The notes below the pieces were generated by a model, which saw only the letters and a list, made by a program, of their open reading frames with translations, had not been told where the DNA came from and searched no databases. Shown here piece after piece: positions 40,140 to 51,010 of a stretch of 64,000 nt of DNA. Within the stretch, counting starts at the first letter, position 1. Each line of letters begins with the position of its first letter. The DNA is taken from NCBI GenBank assembly GCA_040767105.1, contig JAXGPE010000002.1:5392-69391 (forward strand), read 5' to 3'. The position numbers were made by a program, and so were the translations under genes. This stretch comes from Peptococcaceae bacterium (lineage in GTDB: Bacteria; Bacillota; Peptococcia; DRI-13; PHAD01).

Positions 40140-40831
40140 TCACTCTTCTAGAAATTTCAGTTCTTCCTCACTAAGCGGTTTGATCCCAGCAAGCCTATAT
40201 CTCAGGCTAAGCTGGGCATATTTATTTTCGCCCAAATTATGGTATGCAATGAGTTCTGTCCGGGAAACATTAGGGATTTTTTCAATGAATTTTTAAGGCG
40301 CCGAATATGTTCTTTATTATCGGTCAATCCCGGCACAACAACATGACGTATCCATACATCCGCGCTGCATTCCGCAAGTGCTTGGATAAATGGCTCCAAT
40401 GCCTGCATTTCAAAACCGGTTATTCTCTTATATCCTGCGGCTTCATAATGCTTGATATCTAAAATAACCAAATCTGTTAATCTCAAAATTTCCTTGTATT
40501 CTCCTAACCCAATACCAGCAGTATCCAGAGCAGTTCTGATCCCAGCATTTCTACAAAGCGCCAGCATTTCTAAAAGGAACTCCGCTTGAAGCAAAGGCTC
40601 TCCTCCGGAAAATGTAACACCTCCCCCAGAGGCTTCAAAATAGGGTCGAAAGCTTTCTATTTTTTTAAGCAGGTCTGCGGCCTCGATTTCTTCTCCTGAG
40701 TAAATATCCCAGGTGTCTGGGTTATGACAATACACGCATCTCAATGTGCAGCCTTGCATAAAAACCACGAAACGAACTCCAGGTCCATCCAAAAGACCCA
40801 TGCTTTCAACTGAATGAATGCGTCCTTTCAT
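40140..40831 (-). CDS. pflA: pyruvate formate-lyase activating enzyme (one frameshift near 40290)
   Basis: DGPGVR, GCTLRCVYCHNPDTW; adding one A to the run restores IPNVSRTELIAYHNLGENKY to a stop at 40140. Confidence 0.9.
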
Positions 40832-40836
40832 ACTTA

Positions 40837-43066
40837 TCAGCCAACCATTCTCTGATGAAAAGTACGCGCAATAACTTCCAGCTGTTGTTCACGGGAAAGT
40901 CTGTTAAAGTGTACAGCATAACCGGAAACTCGGATTGTCAGCGTTGGATACTTTTCAGGTTTTTCCATAGCCTCAAGCAGCATTTCCTTATTCAGTACAT
41001 TCACATTCAGATGATGTCCGCCCTTTTGAAAATATCCTTCTAAAATCGCCGCAAGATTTTCAGTTCTCATTTGATCATTCTTTCCAAGGGCTTGAGGCAC
41101 TACAGAAAACGTATTTGATATCCCATCCTCGCAAACAATGTTATATGGAAGCTTTGCGATCGTATTCAGTGAGGCTAACGCTCCGCTGCTGTCCCGACCA
41201 TGCATTGGATTGGCTCCCGGAGCGAAAGGCTGTCCCTTTTTACGTCCGTCCGGTGTTGAACCGGTCTTTTTACCGTAGACTATATTTGAAGAGATCGTAA
41301 GTATCGACATAGTAGCGCGGGCATCACGATACAACGTATGTTTTTTCAATTCCGGTTAAATTTATTTAAATTTCAATAGCTATACTGTCCACACGATCAT
41401 CGTCGTTGCCGTATTTCGGATAATCCCCTTCGACATTGAAATCCACCGCCACGCCGTTTTCGATTATCGGACGGACAACAGCATATTTGATTGCACTCAA
41501 GGAGTCTGCAGCAACCGAAAGCCCGGCCACTCCAAATGCCGTCATTCTATCCATTTCAGTGTCGTACAGAGACATTATCCCTGCTTCGTAAGCGTATTTA
41601 TCATGCATATAATGGATTATATTGATCGCTTCTACATAAACCCGCGCAATATGCTCGAGTACTTTTTCGTAGTTCTTCATCACGCGGGAATATTCCAGTA
41701 TACTTCCCTGTGTATTTTCGACGCCTTCAATACTTTTTCGCCGCTGATCTCATCGATCCCACCATTTATCGAATAGAGCAAGGCCTTCACTAGGTTGCAT
41801 CTTGCTCCAAAAATTGCATTTGTTTTCCTATGCCCATCGCCGAAACACAGCAAGCAATGCCGTAATCATCTCCATATATAGAACGCATCAAATCGTCATT
41901 CTCATATTGGATCGAATCTGTAATTATAGACATTCTTGAACAGTATATCTTAAAAGAATTCGGCAAGTTTTTTGACCATAAAACAGTCATATTTGGTTCG
42001 GGGGCTGGACTAAGATTGGTCAGAGTATGCAAAAAACGAAACGAGTTTTTAGTTACCAATGGTCTTCCATCTATCCCGACTCCACCGATCGCTTCCGTTA
42101 TCCAATTTGGATCGCCGGCAAAAAGTTCATTATATTCCGGGGTACGCAACTGCCTGACCATCCTTAGTTTTATCACAAACTGGTCAATCAGCTCCTGTGC
42201 CTCTTCTTCACTTATCAAGTTCTTTTTAAGATCCCGTTCGATGTAAATATCCAAAAAGGTACTGCAGCGGCCCAGAGACATCGCCGCTCCATTATTTTCT
42301 TTGACTGCGGCAAGATATGCGAAATATAAAAACTGCACTGCCTCGCGGGCATTTTGGGCCGGAAGTGAAATATCGATCCCGTAACGTACAGCCATCCTCT
42401 TCATAGCTTCAAGTGCCCGAATCTGCTCGCTGATCTCTTCACGGAGTCTTATGGTTTCTTCAGTCATTGGACCGGTTATTTTCATTAAGTCTTCTTTTTT
42501 GTACTTAATAAGGAGATCTATTCCATAAAGGGCTACCCGTCTGTAATCTCCGATTATTCTGCCTCTTCCATAAGTATCTGGCAGCCCGGTCAAAAGACCT
42601 GCAGAACGGAAGCGTTTGATCTCCGGAGTGTAAACATCAAATACCCCTTGATTATGAGTTTTTCGGCATTGATCAAAAACATCGAGCAATTTACGATCCA
42701 TTTCATGACCATAGGCACTAAGTGCTTCTTTAACCATTCTTATACCGCCGAATGGGTTTATTATCCTCTTAAGCGGGGCATCTGTCTGCAGGCCCAAAAT
42801 GATTTCGTTTGCCTGATCGATATATCCCGGACCGAAGCTATCAATACCCGCTATTTTATCTGTATCGACGTCAAGTATCCCTCTTTTTATTTCCTGGGTG
42901 ATGAGTTCCTGACACTTTGCCCACAAATTTCGAGTGCGAATGGAAGGCATAGCCAAAAACCCCTCGTCTTCGAGATAAGGGTATAGTTCTTTTGTATAAA
43001 GTCCCTTACATTGAGTGCAGAAGACCATTCCCCATGGACAAAGCCTCTCCATGCTTCATATGACAT
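40837..43066 (-). CDS. pflB: pyruvate formate-lyase (frameshifted; probably sequencing error)
   Basis: [23 protein letters not shown] glycyl-radical motif; real start MSYEAW; breaks near 42980, 41810, 41735, 41360. Confidence 0.88.
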
Positions 43067-43939: not shown

Positions 43940-44848
43940 TTAGCTGCCGAAAGCGAACATCAATGTGAAATAGCTTGTTGTTTCCATTTGTTCTTTTTGG
44001 GTTATCATCCCGGAATTTGTGTGATCAATAATGATGACTTCCTTATTGTTCACTCTCTCTGCACGGCGCATGGCCATGGAAAGCGCAGCCGGTGAATCAA
44101 GATGATCATTGCCCATAGCATACAGAGCAGAATAGTCATAATCAAAAATCGCGCGGATGGTTTGCTCATCCTTGGCCGCTGCTTTATCATAAGTAAGATA
44201 ATGCGAAAAGTCAACCGAAGCTAAAAGCAAATACCCTTCTTTGCCTAATTCGGCATCAAGGTGATCCAATAAATTTTCGATCTCAGACAGCTTGACATCA
44301 TGATGAAAAATCAACGGCAAGACTTGAGCGTTAGGAAGATAGAATTTTATAAATGGTATCACAGCGCCGATAGAATGTTCCTTTGCCAGCACTCTCTCAT
44401 CTATCTTCACAAGTCCTTTCTGAGCCAGCACTGATATTGCTCGCCTTTCAGCCGACAGCGGACCGCTGGGTGTTGCCCAACTATTTGATCCACCGATTAT
44501 CCTGGCCCCCGTGTTCGTATGATTAGGCCCCACCAGCACGATGATTTTAGGATCATTTTCAACAATAGCTTCAAAATAGCGGGCGTTTAAATGTCCAGCA
44601 GCAAGATGATGCGGAATTACCCCTGACGCAAGCGTCACGGGGACGGGAATCTTTTCACGCGATAGCGTTTTTTTCAACCCCAGATAATAATAAAAATCAT
44701 CTCTGCTAACAAATGAAGACTCATGGACAGAGATTGACCGTTCAGATCCATCTGCATCATTTATGTTCCTTCTGTCAGCTGCGCAACAGCTTAGGAGCAG
44801 CATTAAGAGCGTGAAAACAGCTAAATATAAGAAGCGGGCTGGTTTCAT
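43940..44848 (-). CDS. Memo/AmmeMemoRadiSam protein B family, predicted lipoprotein
   Basis: GVIPHH, VGPNH, EHSI, ASVDFSHY; signal peptide ending LLSC; ATGA overlap with the macroglobulin stop. Confidence 0.8.
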   Translation of the reverse strand: MKPARFLYLAVFTLLMLLLSCCAADRRNINDADGSERSISVHESSFVSRDDFYYYLGLKKTLSREKIPVPVTLASGVIPHHLAAGHLNARYFEAIVENDPKIIVLVGPNHTNTGARIIGGSNSWATPSGPLSAERRAISVLAQKGLVKIDERVLAKEHSIGAVIPFIKFYLPNAQVLPLIFHHDVKLSEIENLLDHLDAELGKEGYLLLASVDFSHYLTYDKAAAKDEQTIRAIFDYDYSALYAMGNDHLDSPAALSMAMRRAERVNNKEVIIIDHTNSGMITQKEQMETTSYFTLMFAFGS

Positions 44849-47800
44849 TTTATTTTTATCCATTTTTCTGTACCATAAGTACTGACCTGATCGTTACGCA
44901 CATTAAACAGCAGCGCTGCTTCCGCTTTATACTCTCCTGGATTTACCGGTCGAGCATAATAGATCAGCTTCTTATCGTCCTTGTTCACGACGAAGTGTAT
45001 AGCCTGCCCTTTCACCTGTGTCGGATAGGCGGTATCTTTATTCCTATCTTTTAGATCAATATTTTCTAATGCGACATAGCGGAGTCCTGCTGGTAAAAAG
45101 TCAATTATTTCATAATTCCCGGATGGAGCCTTATCCTTTATTTCAAATTCTAAATTGACCTCGACCAAATCAGACCTGTTCAGCATTTCGCGTTCTACAT
45201 TTTCAACTTTATAGATTCTTTTGATAAAGAGGTCAGGGTCTTTAGTAATCTCTTCAGGCTTATACGGCGAAGAATAAAACACCATTACTCCGACATCGCC
45301 CTGAATATCCATGAATGAAATTCTTGAAGCCTCCTGAGGCAACAAAGTCAACCTGAAACTTTCCCTGCCGGATAATTCTTTGGTCACCTTTTGATCTTCG
45401 TTTGAATAAGTAAATCTAACAGGTTCCGGATCCATATTATATAGATTATGCGTAAGAATTACCGCCTGCTCAGCCATATTCAACACTTTTTCACTCGGAT
45501 TATCTAGCAGGTATTGAAAAAGCTTGTCTTTTTGGGGATGGTCTAACCTTGCTGCCAGCATAGCCATGCGTGAGGTCGCCATGATGACATCATCCTGATC
45601 TTCGCCTACATTTATCCTCATGACTGCTCCCAAATCCTCTCCATACTTTGTGATCAAATCGTCACACATCATCTCCGCAGCATGACCATTGCCCAAATCA
45701 AGCATAGCTAGAGCTAGATTAATATTTTCGGCTAATGATAAACCATTCTCCTTTAGCATTTGTTCTACCTGAAGCAACACAGGTTCACGCAGGGCCCCCA
45801 ATCCCCACAATGCAGCACTTCGGTCAATTTTCTTTTCTTCTTCGAGCATTCGGTACATATATGCAGCCATCGCATCCTTATCCAGTTTTTCTGCAATCAA
45901 GGAGGCAGCCAAGGCCGTTAGCTCAAGGTCGCTTTCTGCGTAAGGCAGAATAGCGACTCCTCCATCCTCGCGCTGATAACGCAGTAAATCATCCGCAGGC
46001 TGTTCGCCGATCACATTGTGCAATGTCTCAGGAAAGTACTCCTGCATCAAATCCAAACCGATCTGTGCTGCCATTTTTTGTTCAAAACGCATCCCATTCT
46101 GACCTGACAAGAGGTGAAGCCCTCGTATATACTTGCTCTCCTGACTGTCACAAAAAATAATTTCAATCGGTTCACTTTCTTCGCTGAAATCTTTCAGCAA
46201 CTGTTCCAGCCTGAAGCTCTCATCCAGATGTGCGTCAAATGATTTTGTCCATTCTAAAAAAGAATCCTCGACTGTAAAGCTCATACTTATCGAGTCCTTG
46301 TGATTCTTCACATTACCTTCCACTTTAAGTCCATACTTTCCGGGCTTCAATTTCGGCAGCTGCCAGTCTAAGGAAGAGTATGCATCTGCTGATGCTGTTC
46401 CCGTGAAAGTTTTACCTTCGGTATCCGACAGAGTATATTTATAAGTGATCCTATCATTTGCTCCCAGCCCTTCGCCATACCCGCGCAGAATAACTATCGG
46501 GCTATCTCCAGTCAGATATTTATCTTTCGCTACCAGGTCCACGAAGAAAGGTAATTTTGCCGAGATCTTTTTTGTGCCGCTTGCTGCCTTTAAATCAGAA
46601 CTCAATACGTGGTAAGTCAATCGCCAGGAAGTAATATTGTCAGGAAGCTTAAAATTAGTTTGGGCCTTGCCTTGAGCATCAGTTTTCAGCGAAATGAATA
46701 TTATTGTGTCGCGGAAATCCTTGCGATCGCTCCCGCCTTCTCCTCCCTTTTCAGCACCCGCCAAAACTGCTTTGGTAATGAGACTTGCGGGTGTTCAGTG
46801 GCATATATGAAATCTCCATAAAGCGGAAGTAAGAATATCCACATTTTGCTCAGCTAAATCAAAAATCGCCTCATCGACGAGATTAAGATTGATTTCCGCC
46901 GTGACAGGCTCTCCATTTAAGTCTTTTATATTTATACTGGCAATAACCTGCTCTCCGGGGCCATATTCAGCTTTATCAGTTGATATTTCAACTTGTAAGC
47001 GTTGTTTTTCCCTTTCAAACGCAACAATATACCCGGGTGTTTCATGATAAGCGTTTCCATCGAAAAATACCCCGAAAGCATTAAGATTTGGTTTGTCTTT
47101 AGCGTTGAAAATGAATTTATGTTCCGGCGAATCAGATACTTCATAAGCATTGATTTCATCTTGCCCGCGATAGTATAAGAAAGCATTCGTTTTCTCTATA
47201 AGCTGCAACTCATTTTCCATGAAGAAAAGGTTGACAGCTTCTTCTTCTGCATAACGCTGCCCTTCTTTCGACCCTTTCAAATGGTAATATTTGTAATCGT
47301 CCCATTCTCCGCTTTCTGCGGACGGTATCTCGATCCTGCTTTTAGCCATTCTCCCTGAACTATCTTGAGCTGTGAGCAGCACATAATAAGAAGACTTTTC
47401 ATCCAAGCCGCTCTCATAGAAGATGCTGCCTTTCTCCCCGCTGGTCACTTCGAAATCTTTGATATGCTTTGTTGAATGGTTATAATAATAATCAGTGACT
47501 ACCTTTTTATTTATGTAATCGTATCTTTGCCCCGCTTCGACTTTTTCCCAGACATTTTGATGTATGCTTCCTCTGATCAAAACATTTGCTGCCGGGGCAG
47601 CCAGAAAATTTTTCTCCTCAACGCTGGCTCCGGAATTTATGCTTTCAAGCTCTATATCATAGACCTCTCCTTCAAGTCTAAATCCATCCGCCTGACGTTT
47701 TGCTTCTCCCTTGATATACAGTTTGCTGTTAAATACTAGAATGCTTTCTGACGCCCTAATTTCCGCAGCCTCTGGTAAAGAGGCACGCACATGCATGTAT

Positions 47801-49750
47801 CGATAGCGGTATGGATTATAATATTCCTCAGATATCGTTTCCCCGATATACGATATTTTTGAGCTCCCGTTTTCGTTTGTTACTGTCTGTCCATTTTTAT
47901 CATACGTTTCGTAATCTACCGCCAGATCAGGCAACGGGGTTCCTTCATAAAAGCTTGCTCGTAATTCGAACGAGATTTTTTCTCCGGCAAATATAGCTTT
48001 TTTTTCTGGATTTAATTGCAATTGGTAGGCGGGTTTGGTATATGTTTCTACAGAAAAACCTTTTGACAATAATGTTGTTTCTCCGATACACAACCGTAAA
48101 TAATAGTAATCAGGCTTGAGCACCGGCAGATCGATCTTTCCGCTGAATGTTTTATCCTGTACGGGGACATTCTGAATAAGTATTGGTGATGATTCTTCGC
48201 CGTAATAAGATCTTCGGCTGCTCCATAACTCTACCCTGACTTCATTTAAATTTTCCAAACCGTTTTCTCTTGATCCAACTATACCCCAATAATTTAGTTC
48301 ATCACCAGGTTTAAATATCTCTCTTTCGAGGTATAAGTACTTCCAATATTTTTGAGCTTTTGTATCATCCCACCAGCTGTAGTAGAGATTATTCTGCATA
48401 AGCGGTATTATCGTTTCTTTTCCTTCTCCACTAACCCTGGCATACAGTGCATCATTTTCTTCTTTAGTTGAAAATATCGGCTTAATAAGCACCGCTCCGT
48501 CCTAGATCAGTGATCGCTTCAATTTTCTGTCCCAGGACCTCTACTTTGCCTTTTTCAAGTGGTTGTTTTTTGGCAAGATCATTTACCCAAATAAGTGTAT
48601 TCTGTCTCCCTATCGCCGCGTAAGTCGCCAGATCAGTAATCTGCATCCATACTTGTCTTATATGATCCCCGACTTTTATATCGGCAACATAATAACCGGC
48701 TGGCAAACTCTGTGGGAAAATCAAATAATGGCTGTACTCATTCAGGGTCAAGAAATTAGTCTTAAATTCAGCTGCCTTTTGCAGTGAGCTTATATCCGTC
48801 CTGTATTCTCTGGACATATATGTCCATTCCGGGTATTCGTCTTTTTTTGCCAACGACGAGGCAAAATGTTCTCCATCTCTGAATGCGTATACAGTTATCT
48901 CTATTTCCATGTTTTTTATTTCTTGGACAGAATTTTCTCCCTGGATAAACCTATAGTCAAAATATGCATCAAAAACCGGTTCTTCGCCTACAGCGAATTC
49001 GTGCAGGACATTGCTTATATCAAAAGAAAACTTATCCTTATCTTCAGTATCGCGACTTGTTTCAAAAACAAAATGGTGATCCTCCGCCAATAGCTCATCG
49101 CTTCCAAGCATTGGCAAACCTTTTTTTACTGTTACCCTATAATATGTTCCGGCTTGGAGTTTTTCCGGAACAAACACCAACGAACGTTTATTTTGTTCGA
49201 ATGAACCTTTTGTTTCAGGTGATATTTGGAAATATTTTTCTATTTGCTTGAGATCAAAGTTTGCGTGCGAAAAATAAATTTCTATTCCTGAATCAATCGG
49301 TACATCGGTAGATCGTTGCGCCGGCATTGATCCCAAAACCTTAAAGCTGCCTTTCGTCTGAAATGCCCAGCTCAATTTCTCTTGTTTTTTACCATTGAGA
49401 TCGAAACTAAAACTGTATATCGTATCAGGCAGCAAGGGAGCCGAAGGTATTATACTGTATTCGTGCGCTGAATCCTTAATTGCCAAATCATAGGAAAATG
49501 AGGGTTGAATATTCAAGCCCCTCTTCAGGTCCGCCGCCGTCAGCTCACCCGAAGTCTTTATGGTAAACATGCTGGACAAGCTTATACCCATAGCGTCCTG
49601 TTCATCTGCAACTATATTTATCGTCTGGGTATCTTCTATTGAATTATCTTTGATAAAACTGAGCTTGCCCATTAGTAGGAATATAGCCGCGAACATCCCC
49701 ACGGCCATCAGAATACCTAAGCCTGCTTTCAACTTCTTTTTGTTTTGCAT
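44845..49750 (-). CDS. alpha-2-macroglobulin family protein with N-terminal Ig-like domains (three frameshifted pieces)
   Basis: N-terminal TM; LEREIFKPGD, VETYTKPAY, LVDEAIFDL, RKDFRDT, KLPDNITSWRL, YQREDGG, IDFLPAGL; breaks near 48490 and 46765-46810. Confidence 0.8.
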
Positions 49751-49957
49751 ATAGACACCTTTCCTTCTTTGCGAACAAAAAATCAGTTTCTCATTAATAC
49801 CTCTTCTCAATAACTTACCTTGTTAATATTATACTATTTTGTTTAAAAAACAAAAACCGCCGCATATTCAGGTATCGTTCATTAAATCATACCCCTTTCG
49901 GCGTTTTTGTTTTTATTTACTATCTCTCGTCAATAGATCATACTGATAAGTCTGCTA

Positions 49958-51010
49958 CTAACCATTGTAATTGATTTTTTTATTCACCGCTGGCTTGATC
50001 CATTCTTTAGCCGCAAGCAACTCAGCAATTTGCACGGCATTAAGCGCGGCTCCTTTTAGCAGATTATCGGAAACGACCCACATATTCAATCCGTTCGCTA
50101 TCGTATAATCCTTTCGGATACGTCCCACGAAAACCTCATGTTTTCCTGCGCAATCGATCGCCAGTGGGTAATCATTATTTTGAACATCATCGATCACTAC
50201 CACTCCGGCAGCCTTTTTACCAATAAAGCTCTGATATCTGTACTGAGGCAGCGGTTTTTCCGTTTCAATATTCACCTCGAATATTAGCGTATGACTGGCA
50301 CACGAACTGTTGTCGCTGTAACCATGATTTTCATCGTCACGAATATTTTTCTGGTTTCGTTGTGCATTTTCATTTCTTCTTTTGTATAACCATTTTCTAA
50401 AAACTTATCAATGTGTAGTAATACATTGAAAGCGATTTGGTGTGGATAGACAGTGTGCGTAATTTCTCTTTCTCCCCAAAAAAATCACTGACTGCTGTTT
50501 CAATTCATCGATAGCCTGATATCCGGTTCCTGATACGGCTTGATACGTTGAAACTACTATCCTTTTGATTTTATAAATATCATGGATCGGTTTCAATGCC
50601 ACGAGCATTTGGATCGTTGAACAATTTGGATTCGCGATCAATCCGTAATGCTTCCCGGCTTCCTGAGGATTCACCTCCGGTACGACTAACGGAACATCAG
50701 GGTTCATTCTAAAAGCATTGCTGTTATCAATCACAACTGCGCCTTCCGCGACGGCCTGCGGTGCGATCTCACGGCTGGCATCTTCTCCGGCGGAGAATAA
50801 GGCAATGTCCACATCGGCGAAGGAGCCTTCTTTGATCAACTGTGAATAAAACATTTTGCCCTGAAAAAGAACACTTTCGCCTTCATTACGCCGAACCATC
50901 GGAACAACCTCTGCTATCGGCAGCGAAGATTTTTCCAAGGTCGCGACCATCTCACGGCCAACCGCGCCCATTCCCACAACAGCGATTTTATACTTTTTCA
51001 CGCTAAACAC
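49958..51010 (-). CDS. asd: aspartate-semialdehyde dehydrogenase (several frameshifts; probably sequencing error)
   Basis: ANPNCST, STYQAVSG, IAFNVL...NGYTKEEMK in another frame, DNLLKGAALNAVQI. Confidence 0.9.

Follow-up and report, generated by a model that had tools for sequence, protein, structure and literature searches.

A conserved pairing of a thioester-less alpha-2-macroglobulin with a predicted exported Memo-family protein in a Peptococcaceae bacterium and its relatives

A macroglobulin gene and a Memo-fold gene overlap

We analyzed a 64,000-nucleotide stretch of DNA (hereafter the window) from contig JAXGPE010000002.1 of a Peptococcaceae bacterium (GCA_040767105.1), a metagenome-assembled genome (MAG) that is 64% complete. 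On the minus strand of the window, a gene of the alpha-2-macroglobulin (A2M) family (44845..49750, with its ATG start at 49750 and its stop at 44845) is followed by a gene encoding a Memo-fold protein of 302 residues (43940..44848). An earlier sequence-only reading of this DNA had described the two genes as translationally coupled. The ATGA stop/start overlap at 44845..44848 on the minus strand is indeed real if the Memo protein starts at MKPARF, while the upstream ATG at 44863 chosen by the open reading frame (ORF) finder would give a 19-nt overlap. An ATGA overlap was also counted by eye in about 49 of 77 such pairs from GTDB.

In the assembly the A2M gene is split into three ORFs (48482-49810, 46795-48492 and 44845-46764) by four indels on the minus strand within 46756..48504 (48504 -1, 46825 -1, 46802 +2 and 46756 +2). 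Contigs from 4 of 4 independent runs (from at most 4 studies) carry the identical four differences and give a single A2M frame, and in two of these 4 runs one contig covers the whole A2M-Memo stretch. The frame breaks are assembly errors; once they are discounted, simple arithmetic gives a protein of ~1,635 residues. The "long unbroken ORF" of the sequence-only reading thus holds for the 639-residue third piece, which carries the thioester-site motif discussed below, and not for the A2M gene as a whole. The genes pflA-pflB (window 40202-43052) and asd (49958-51010) are fragmented as well, and since the assembly is indel-rich, broken genes in the window should not be read as pseudogenes.

The A2M protein comprises a predicted N-terminal membrane anchor, Ig-like and MG domains, a bait-region domain, a TED-like helical domain, and a C-terminal MG domain, with Pfam matches to Big_5, bMG3, MG2, A2M_BRD, and A2M across its pieces. 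The predicted membrane helix (49667..49723, minus strand, about residues 10-28) was read from the sequence; no Cys occurs within the first 100 residues, and hence no N-terminal lipobox. Most relatives likewise have a single N-terminal hydrophobic segment. A PDB sequence search with an A2M piece returned only weak matches to human A2M. A predicted model of the C-terminal 814 residues of one relative (predicted local distance difference test, pLDDT, 87) had ECAM and Salmonella A2M as its best structural matches (5a42, E 4e-39; 4u48, E 1e-35), and CD109 was also matched. The MG, bait-region, TED-like helical, and C-terminal MG domains, found by Pfam and in the relative's model, place the protein in the A2M/complement superfamily.

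The Memo protein matched TIGR04336 with 120 bits (cut-off 26) and PF01875 with 84 bits. Its predicted model (pLDDT 90) superimposes on MEMO1 with Z 26.2 and a root-mean-square deviation of 2.8 over 256 residues, compared with Z 14-19 for dioxygenases, and MEMO1 was also the best match by Foldseek and VIA. PDB sequence searches with the Memo protein, both single and profile, found nothing. The motifs PHH, PNH (as GPNH), EHS, and DFSH (as SVDFSHY) listed in the sequence-only reading are all present. Five residues, H80, H110, D213, H216, and D251, are kept in 143/143 distinct Memo cores; D251-S-P is invariant, and a Cys occurs near that place in one of the 143. In human MEMO1, which binds iron, the ligands H49, H81, and C244 correspond to LigB H12, H61, and E242, and glutathione (gamma-Glu-Cys-Gly) is held with its glycine carboxyl on H192; the substrate is given as not known in the excerpt of that study (PMC11081632). 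From spacing, secondary structure, and comparison with canonical AmrB, D251 likely replaces Cys244 of MEMO1, which would give a 2-His-1-Asp metal site.

A lipobox-like LLSC/LSCC, following a basic N-terminus and a hydrophobic stretch, can be read at the start of the Memo protein (44783..44848, minus strand), and many close homologues have a G-C pattern at the same place. In our own hydropathy and pattern scan, an N-terminal hydrophobic segment was found in 151/155 Memo homologues and a strict lipobox in 41/155. The lipoprotein assignment of the sequence-only reading varies among homologues; export is predicted to be the constant and lipidation optional.

The pair is conserved

To survey the pair, a Memo alignment was used as the query against GTDB and the best 80 of 160 confirmed loci were examined, alongside the best 80 metagenome loci, also picked by Memo. 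Counts below include kin that are not independent, and some genomes occur in more than one set. A same-strand A2M gene lies upstream of Memo in 77/80 GTDB loci, directly in 75 and with one or two small genes between in 2; one of the 77 matches is only a weak one, to a fragment where the contig ends. Two of the remaining three loci end at a contig edge, and the third is a Memo-CapA fusion without A2M. The metagenome loci gave an upstream A2M in 71/80, the other nine lying at contig edges with <200 nt upstream. The gene-pair survey proposed in the sequence-only reading therefore came out in favor of a conserved pairing. Because these sets were picked by Memo, we added an even draw of 401 genomes from the phylum. 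There, 26/26 Memo matches at E<1e-8 have an A2M-like gene beside them, and of the 25 close A2M genes (>500 bits, in 24 genomes), 22 lie next to Memo. In a Patescibacteria-centred draw of 251 genomes, in which the best 29 of 46 Memo places were examined, A2M lies within 5 kb of 15/19 stand-alone Memos and of 1/10 CapA-sized fusions, and Memo is present with 16/42 A2M genes.

Memo is the sole partner common across the 80 GTDB loci, the next commonest neighbor being an extracytoplasmic function (ECF) sigma gene, found in 12; no AMMECR1 and radical SAM cluster recurs among them. Among named loci, the closest come from records of Clostridia, Peptococcaceae, and Desulfitobacterium, and most of the runs containing the stretch are metagenomes from sludge, sediment, and wastewater. 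Several records titled Mycobacterium leprae, Methylocystaceae, or Gammaproteobacteria (L124, L088, L128, L131, L133, and L138) hold proteins resembling those of Bacillota or Patescibacteria; they are probably mislabelled, and the phyla that they name were left uncounted. No description joining A2M and Memo was found in the literature within reach of our search, which did not extend to Burroughs et al. 2019 (a Memo-superfamily survey) and Budd et al. 2004. The A2M-Memo pair is a real, conserved, and apparently undescribed variant of bacterial macroglobulin systems.

The Memo family itself is large, with 1,752 clusters at E<=1e-30, a number that may include other Memo types. Predicted exported fusions of Memo to CapA (PGA_cap), such as L125:2170-3993 and L135:9749-11611, are common in Patescibacteria records, mostly away from A2M, and L281:2761-4512 on a Rhizobium plasmid resembles them. 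Many relatives (G001:C21, G011:C12, and others) have a second, weak TIGR04336 match elsewhere, in a frame of 470-540 residues, the size of a Memo-AMMECR1 fusion; this is probably the ordinary cytoplasmic system.

In the window the pair is flanked by asd upstream and by DUF1330 downstream, then pflB-pflA. These genes were considered as members of the system and rejected, as they do not recur beyond close kin. The absence of an adjacent AMMECR1, radical SAM partner, or pbpC, remarked on in the sequence-only reading, was borne out. The one radical SAM gene identified nearby, 3.1 kb downstream, is pflA, beside pflB (pyruvate formate-lyase), and AMMECR1 was not found in the window's own genome at its 64% completeness. 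The sole tblastn match of E. coli PbpC in that genome is on another contig, at 28% identity. A scan for promoters and terminators stayed at chance level (21 vs 17.5 and 7 vs 5.1).

The thioester cysteine is missing in one of two clades

At the expected thioester site the window A2M reads GMRFEQ (46078..46095, minus strand), and its Arg codon (46087-46089) coincides with the Cys position or lies beside it. MAFFT aligned this motif with GCLEQ of E. coli YfhM and set the Arg on the thioester Cys, as the sequence-only reading had anticipated, and none of the 40 run-versus-assembly differences listed (of 50) falls inside it. Across the window's clade the Cys column holds Arg in 84/88 rows, a gap in 4, and Cys in none, in the context G-x-R-[VLIF]-[ED]-Q. 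Profile-profile alignment gave an alternative register, which opens a gap of six residues at the thioester site and pairs the Arg with the Arg of TTSR. In the relative's model a helix begins directly after the Arg, in line with what a C-x-E-Q site should show, which favors the Arg-on-Cys register, as does the MAFFT alignment with YfhM. Whichever register holds, the thioester Cys is absent in the window's clade, and the window gene is without the CxEQ of type I bacterial A2Ms. Orthologues in this clade do not restore CxEQ, the pairing is kept, and Memo is predicted to be exported, so that none of the contrary outcomes named in the sequence-only reading materialized there.

Seven GTDB loci and 31/71 metagenome loci nevertheless pair the same Memo type with an A2M bearing an intact PYGCxEQ. 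These CxEQ-type proteins form a clade separate from the Arg-type proteins of the window's clade, and Patescibacteria records account for four of its named members. The FastTree tree, which has four mis-cut rows on false long branches, was used only for this two-clade split and for the nesting described below. Because the CxEQ clade keeps the same Memo partner, thioester loss is a lineage trait, and its treatment in the sequence-only reading as a hallmark of the system has to be given up.

The bait region carries a conserved motif

The bait loop of animal A2Ms is a variable lure. In the window protein it contains A-E-K-G-G-E-G-G (46732..46755, minus strand), which is conserved among Memo-paired A2Ms and is the site of a Hint insertion in relatives, the consensus being H-x(7-9)-A-E-x-G-G-[EDG]-G. 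Of 111 distinct Memo-paired A2Ms, 104 match the pattern A-E-x-G-G, and on inspection the other 7 keep the Glu. In a mixed set of 59 A2Ms, the motif is present in 38/38 Memo-paired proteins versus 0/21 others, and the two Memo-less A2Ms read from the window's own clade have lost it. One family, of which two loci were read (f108; L253:2664-7105 and L254:1262-5808), has a Memo homologue without the catalytic histidines beside an A2M of ~1,200 residues that has neither the bait motif nor a bait-domain Pfam match; the pair is retained although both genes look decayed. The co-varying motif points to a bait-directed role of Memo and not to a passive scaffold.

Directly after A-E-x-G(G), a Hint domain of ~129 residues is present in 24/28 CxEQ-type and 2/83 Arg-type Memo-paired A2Ms (e.g., L119:4797-9920, L133, and L144). 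It ends in H-N, and the next residue is Q, E, D, or N. As this residue is usually Q, E, or D and not a nucleophile, the domain likely cleaves rather than splices. Cleavage would then leave A-E-x-G-G as a new C-terminus, and the placement of Hint marks the bond after A-E-x-G(G) as a functional site of cleavage.

A separate group of CxEQ A2Ms from the same phylum has another partner. Among 23 loci examined (3 truncated, 3 with PBP1C), a predicted membrane-anchored AMMECR1 lies directly upstream in 17/17 loci that have upstream DNA (L257-L259, L261-L272, L275, and L276), and almost all of these AMMECR1 proteins retain the R-[GA]-C motif. The bait of these A2Ms is a variant, mostly G-G-A-D-K, and VanW is downstream or fused where checked, 5/5 proteins expected to hold VanW having it. 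Both non-radical members of AmmeMemoRadiSam are thus predicted to have been separately recruited as exported A2M partners.

Some relatives are linked to ECF sigma factors

An ECF sigma gene directly precedes 12 of the 54 full-length Arg-type GTDB A2Ms, with an overlap or a 9-nt gap (BldN-like; L064:4289-9923, L065, L068, L070, L073, L076, L077, L080, L086, L089, L092, and L093). In all 12, a cytoplasmic segment of >=78 residues precedes the membrane helix, compared with 2/42 others. In a second family, the same layout with a SigV-like ECF gene was found in 7/7 loci fetched (L053-L059); the two ECF types are 27-33% identical, which suggests two captures. The extensions gave no match to the three anti-sigma Pfam models tested; they are nonetheless likely short anti-sigma domains fused to A2M in Bacillota. 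Our literature search returned nothing relevant for ECF, anti-sigma, and macroglobulin together. The window A2M nests among the ECF-linked genes in the FastTree tree, yet has no ECF gene and no cytoplasmic anti-sigma-like extension, which fits loss of a signalling tail. Two further features of Arg-type relatives were seen. L078 has the extension but no ECF gene beside it, and an A-x-A signal-peptidase-like pattern, which could permit release or regulated site-1 cleavage, lies ~8-15 residues outside the membrane helix in 34/54 Arg-type A2Ms (e.g., L061:4932-5100), though not in the window gene.

What the Memo protein may do

The coupling of the genes, the two folds, the missing thioester Cys, and the invariance of the Memo site residues and the bait motif are established. 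We tentatively favor a model, to which we give somewhat less than even confidence, where the predicted exported Memo protein binds the A-E-x-G-G bait motif and controls a bait-triggered switch. Both proteins would sit outside the cytoplasmic membrane. A divalent metal would be held by H80, H110, and D251, with H216 and D213 lining the pocket, and this pocket might take the Glu-x-Gly tag of the bait much as MEMO1 holds glutathione via H192, thereby guarding, priming, or reading a cut after G-G. A bait cut would trigger the conformational change of A2M and non-covalent capture of the protease, as in MagD, for which trapping without a thioester has been shown (excerpt of PMC5764988). In A2Ms with the anti-sigma-like N-terminal domain, the same change may release the ECF sigma factor. 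For the action of Memo on the bait tag, binding or readout fits best, ahead of cutting or modifying.

Several observations weigh against this model. Reduced to independent pairs on well-supported branches, the link between motif and partner comes down to 3, all concordant (p 0.25). In the mixed bait set, two negative rows are unreliable (G504 and G524), 11 unparsed loci were omitted, and the "no Memo" calls come from fragmented MAGs. The motif is in part common to the whole family, since G-G-[DE]-G also occurs in the YfhM bait, and one AMMECR1-paired A2M (L271) carries A-E-K-E-G-G. The HH alignment put a gap at the D251/Cys244 position. Nor is Memo tied to A2M everywhere: 4/19 stand-alone Memos in the Patescibacteria-centred draw have no A2M nearby and only 1/10 CapA-sized fusions is close to one, 119 of the best 120 longer homologues of the same Memo clade are CapA-fused, and the relative G008 has its A2M and Memo on separate contigs. 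Finally, Memo is kept in the Hint-bearing loci, and its retention beside these self-cutting versions argues that it is not the sole or needed bait protease. A predicted complex of a relative's A2M fragment (678 residues, from the bait domain to TED/CUB) with its Memo scored 0.00, which bears neither way.

The A2M could instead be a stand-alone non-covalent trap, with Memo a co-expressed envelope enzyme that does not act on it, likely a metal-dependent hydrolase that acts on a polymer of the wall or capsule and takes the place held by PBP1C or VanW in other A2M operons. Such a division into trap and repair has been stated for type I A2M (excerpt of PMC5764988), and it would suit both the surveyed A2Ms accompanied by PBP1C (3 loci) or by VanW and AMMECR1 and the common fusion of this Memo clade to CapA/PGA_cap, mostly away from A2M. 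We consider it somewhat unlikely, as it leaves unexplained why the bait Glu tracks Memo, why both genes decay together in one family, and why the bait is conserved at all. A different view takes Memo as a stoichiometric subunit that tethers or stabilizes the A2M, as MagA, MagB, and MagF do with MagD, or as a scaffolded enzyme displayed on it, as the sequence-only reading proposed, the bait motif tracking Memo by shared ancestry only. Translational coupling suggests equal amounts of the two proteins, and MagD makes 1:1 complexes with its operon partners (excerpt of PMC5764988). A purely structural subunit would, however, have no need of five invariant pocket residues, and the A2M already has a predicted membrane helix of its own, making this explanation quite improbable.

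The ECF-linked genes raise the further prospect that the module serves mainly as a receptor of attacks on the envelope: the A2M ectodomain would be the sensor and Memo a co-receptor, and the window version would have lost its signalling tail. The 12 ECF-linked Arg-type genes, all with a cytoplasmic segment, the SigV-like loci, and the nesting of the window gene among ECF-linked ones speak for it. Against it, no ECF gene lies next to 42/54 Arg-type genes or to the CxEQ-type genes examined, none of the three anti-sigma models tested matches the extensions, and the window gene has neither ECF gene nor extension; we hold this prospect to be very doubtful. An artefact, with the Cys lost through a sequencing error and the two genes adjacent by accident, has a negligible chance of being true: the assembly is error-rich, with pflB and asd also in pieces, but the orthologues of the window's clade, which have Arg or a gap and never Cys in that column, and the near-universal adjacency refute it.

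The model of a Memo protein that binds the bait tag can be extended further, to a scheme that we regard as unlikely. AmmeMemoRadiSam would have supplied interchangeable "bait readers": baits with A-E-x-G-G would be read by an exported Memo, those with A-D-K by an exported AMMECR1. The bait would then be a programmed switch and not a generic lure, cut by the partner, an inserted Hint, or the attacking protease and wired to an ECF sigma factor in at least two Bacillota lineages. If true, a Memo-family metal site would for the first time have a defined peptide substrate, and there would be a lead to the function of MEMO1 and AMMECR1. The predicted exported Memo comes with a short candidate ligand, and the ECF fusions point to macroglobulins as possible receptors of envelope attack.

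Comparison with known systems

Among single-protein relatives, MEMO1 and AmmeMemoRadiSam protein B (TIGR04336, PF01875) share with the window Memo the fold, the hidden Markov model match, and the His-His-Asp-His pocket. The window protein differs in being predicted to be exported, in apparently having Asp for the Cys ligand, in having no adjacent AMMECR1 or radical SAM partner, and in belonging to a distinct clade that is A2M-paired or CapA-fused. With LigB-type extradiol dioxygenases (LigB, DesB, and aminophenol dioxygenase) it shares the superfamily fold (Z 16-19), and by the mapping proposed above the residues for a 2-His-1-carboxylate metal site and a catalytic His would be present, but it is structurally nearer to MEMO1 and no aromatic catabolic genes recur nearby. 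The named carriers of the pair are largely anaerobes, and extracellular oxygen chemistry by Memo is therefore unlikely.

Thioester-less bacterial A2Ms are already known as type II, represented by Pseudomonas aeruginosa MagD and the E. coli YfaS class. These share with the window system the A2M fold, a bait region, the lack of CxEQ, and exported partners (excerpts of PMC5764988 and PMC3735191). The window system is, however, a two-gene unit with Memo in place of the six-gene mag/yfa operon, and its A2M has its own predicted membrane helix, a Bacillota host, an invariant Arg at the thioester site, and a CxEQ sister clade with the same partner. Type I A2Ms with PBP1C (E. coli ECAM/YfhM and Salmonella Sa-A2M) are the best structural match and resemble it in their two-gene layout with a downstream envelope protein and in the G-G-[DE]-G of the bait. 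Unlike them, the window A2M has no thioester Cys, no lipobox, and no pbpC; its partner is Memo, and A-E-x precedes G-G in its bait. The system departs from the defining features of both types and, set against the two Gram-negative arrangements as the excerpted sources describe them (thioester with PBP1C, and the thioester-less six-gene operon), it is a further one, frequent in anaerobic Bacillota and Patescibacteria and defined by its partner and its bait, not by the thioester.

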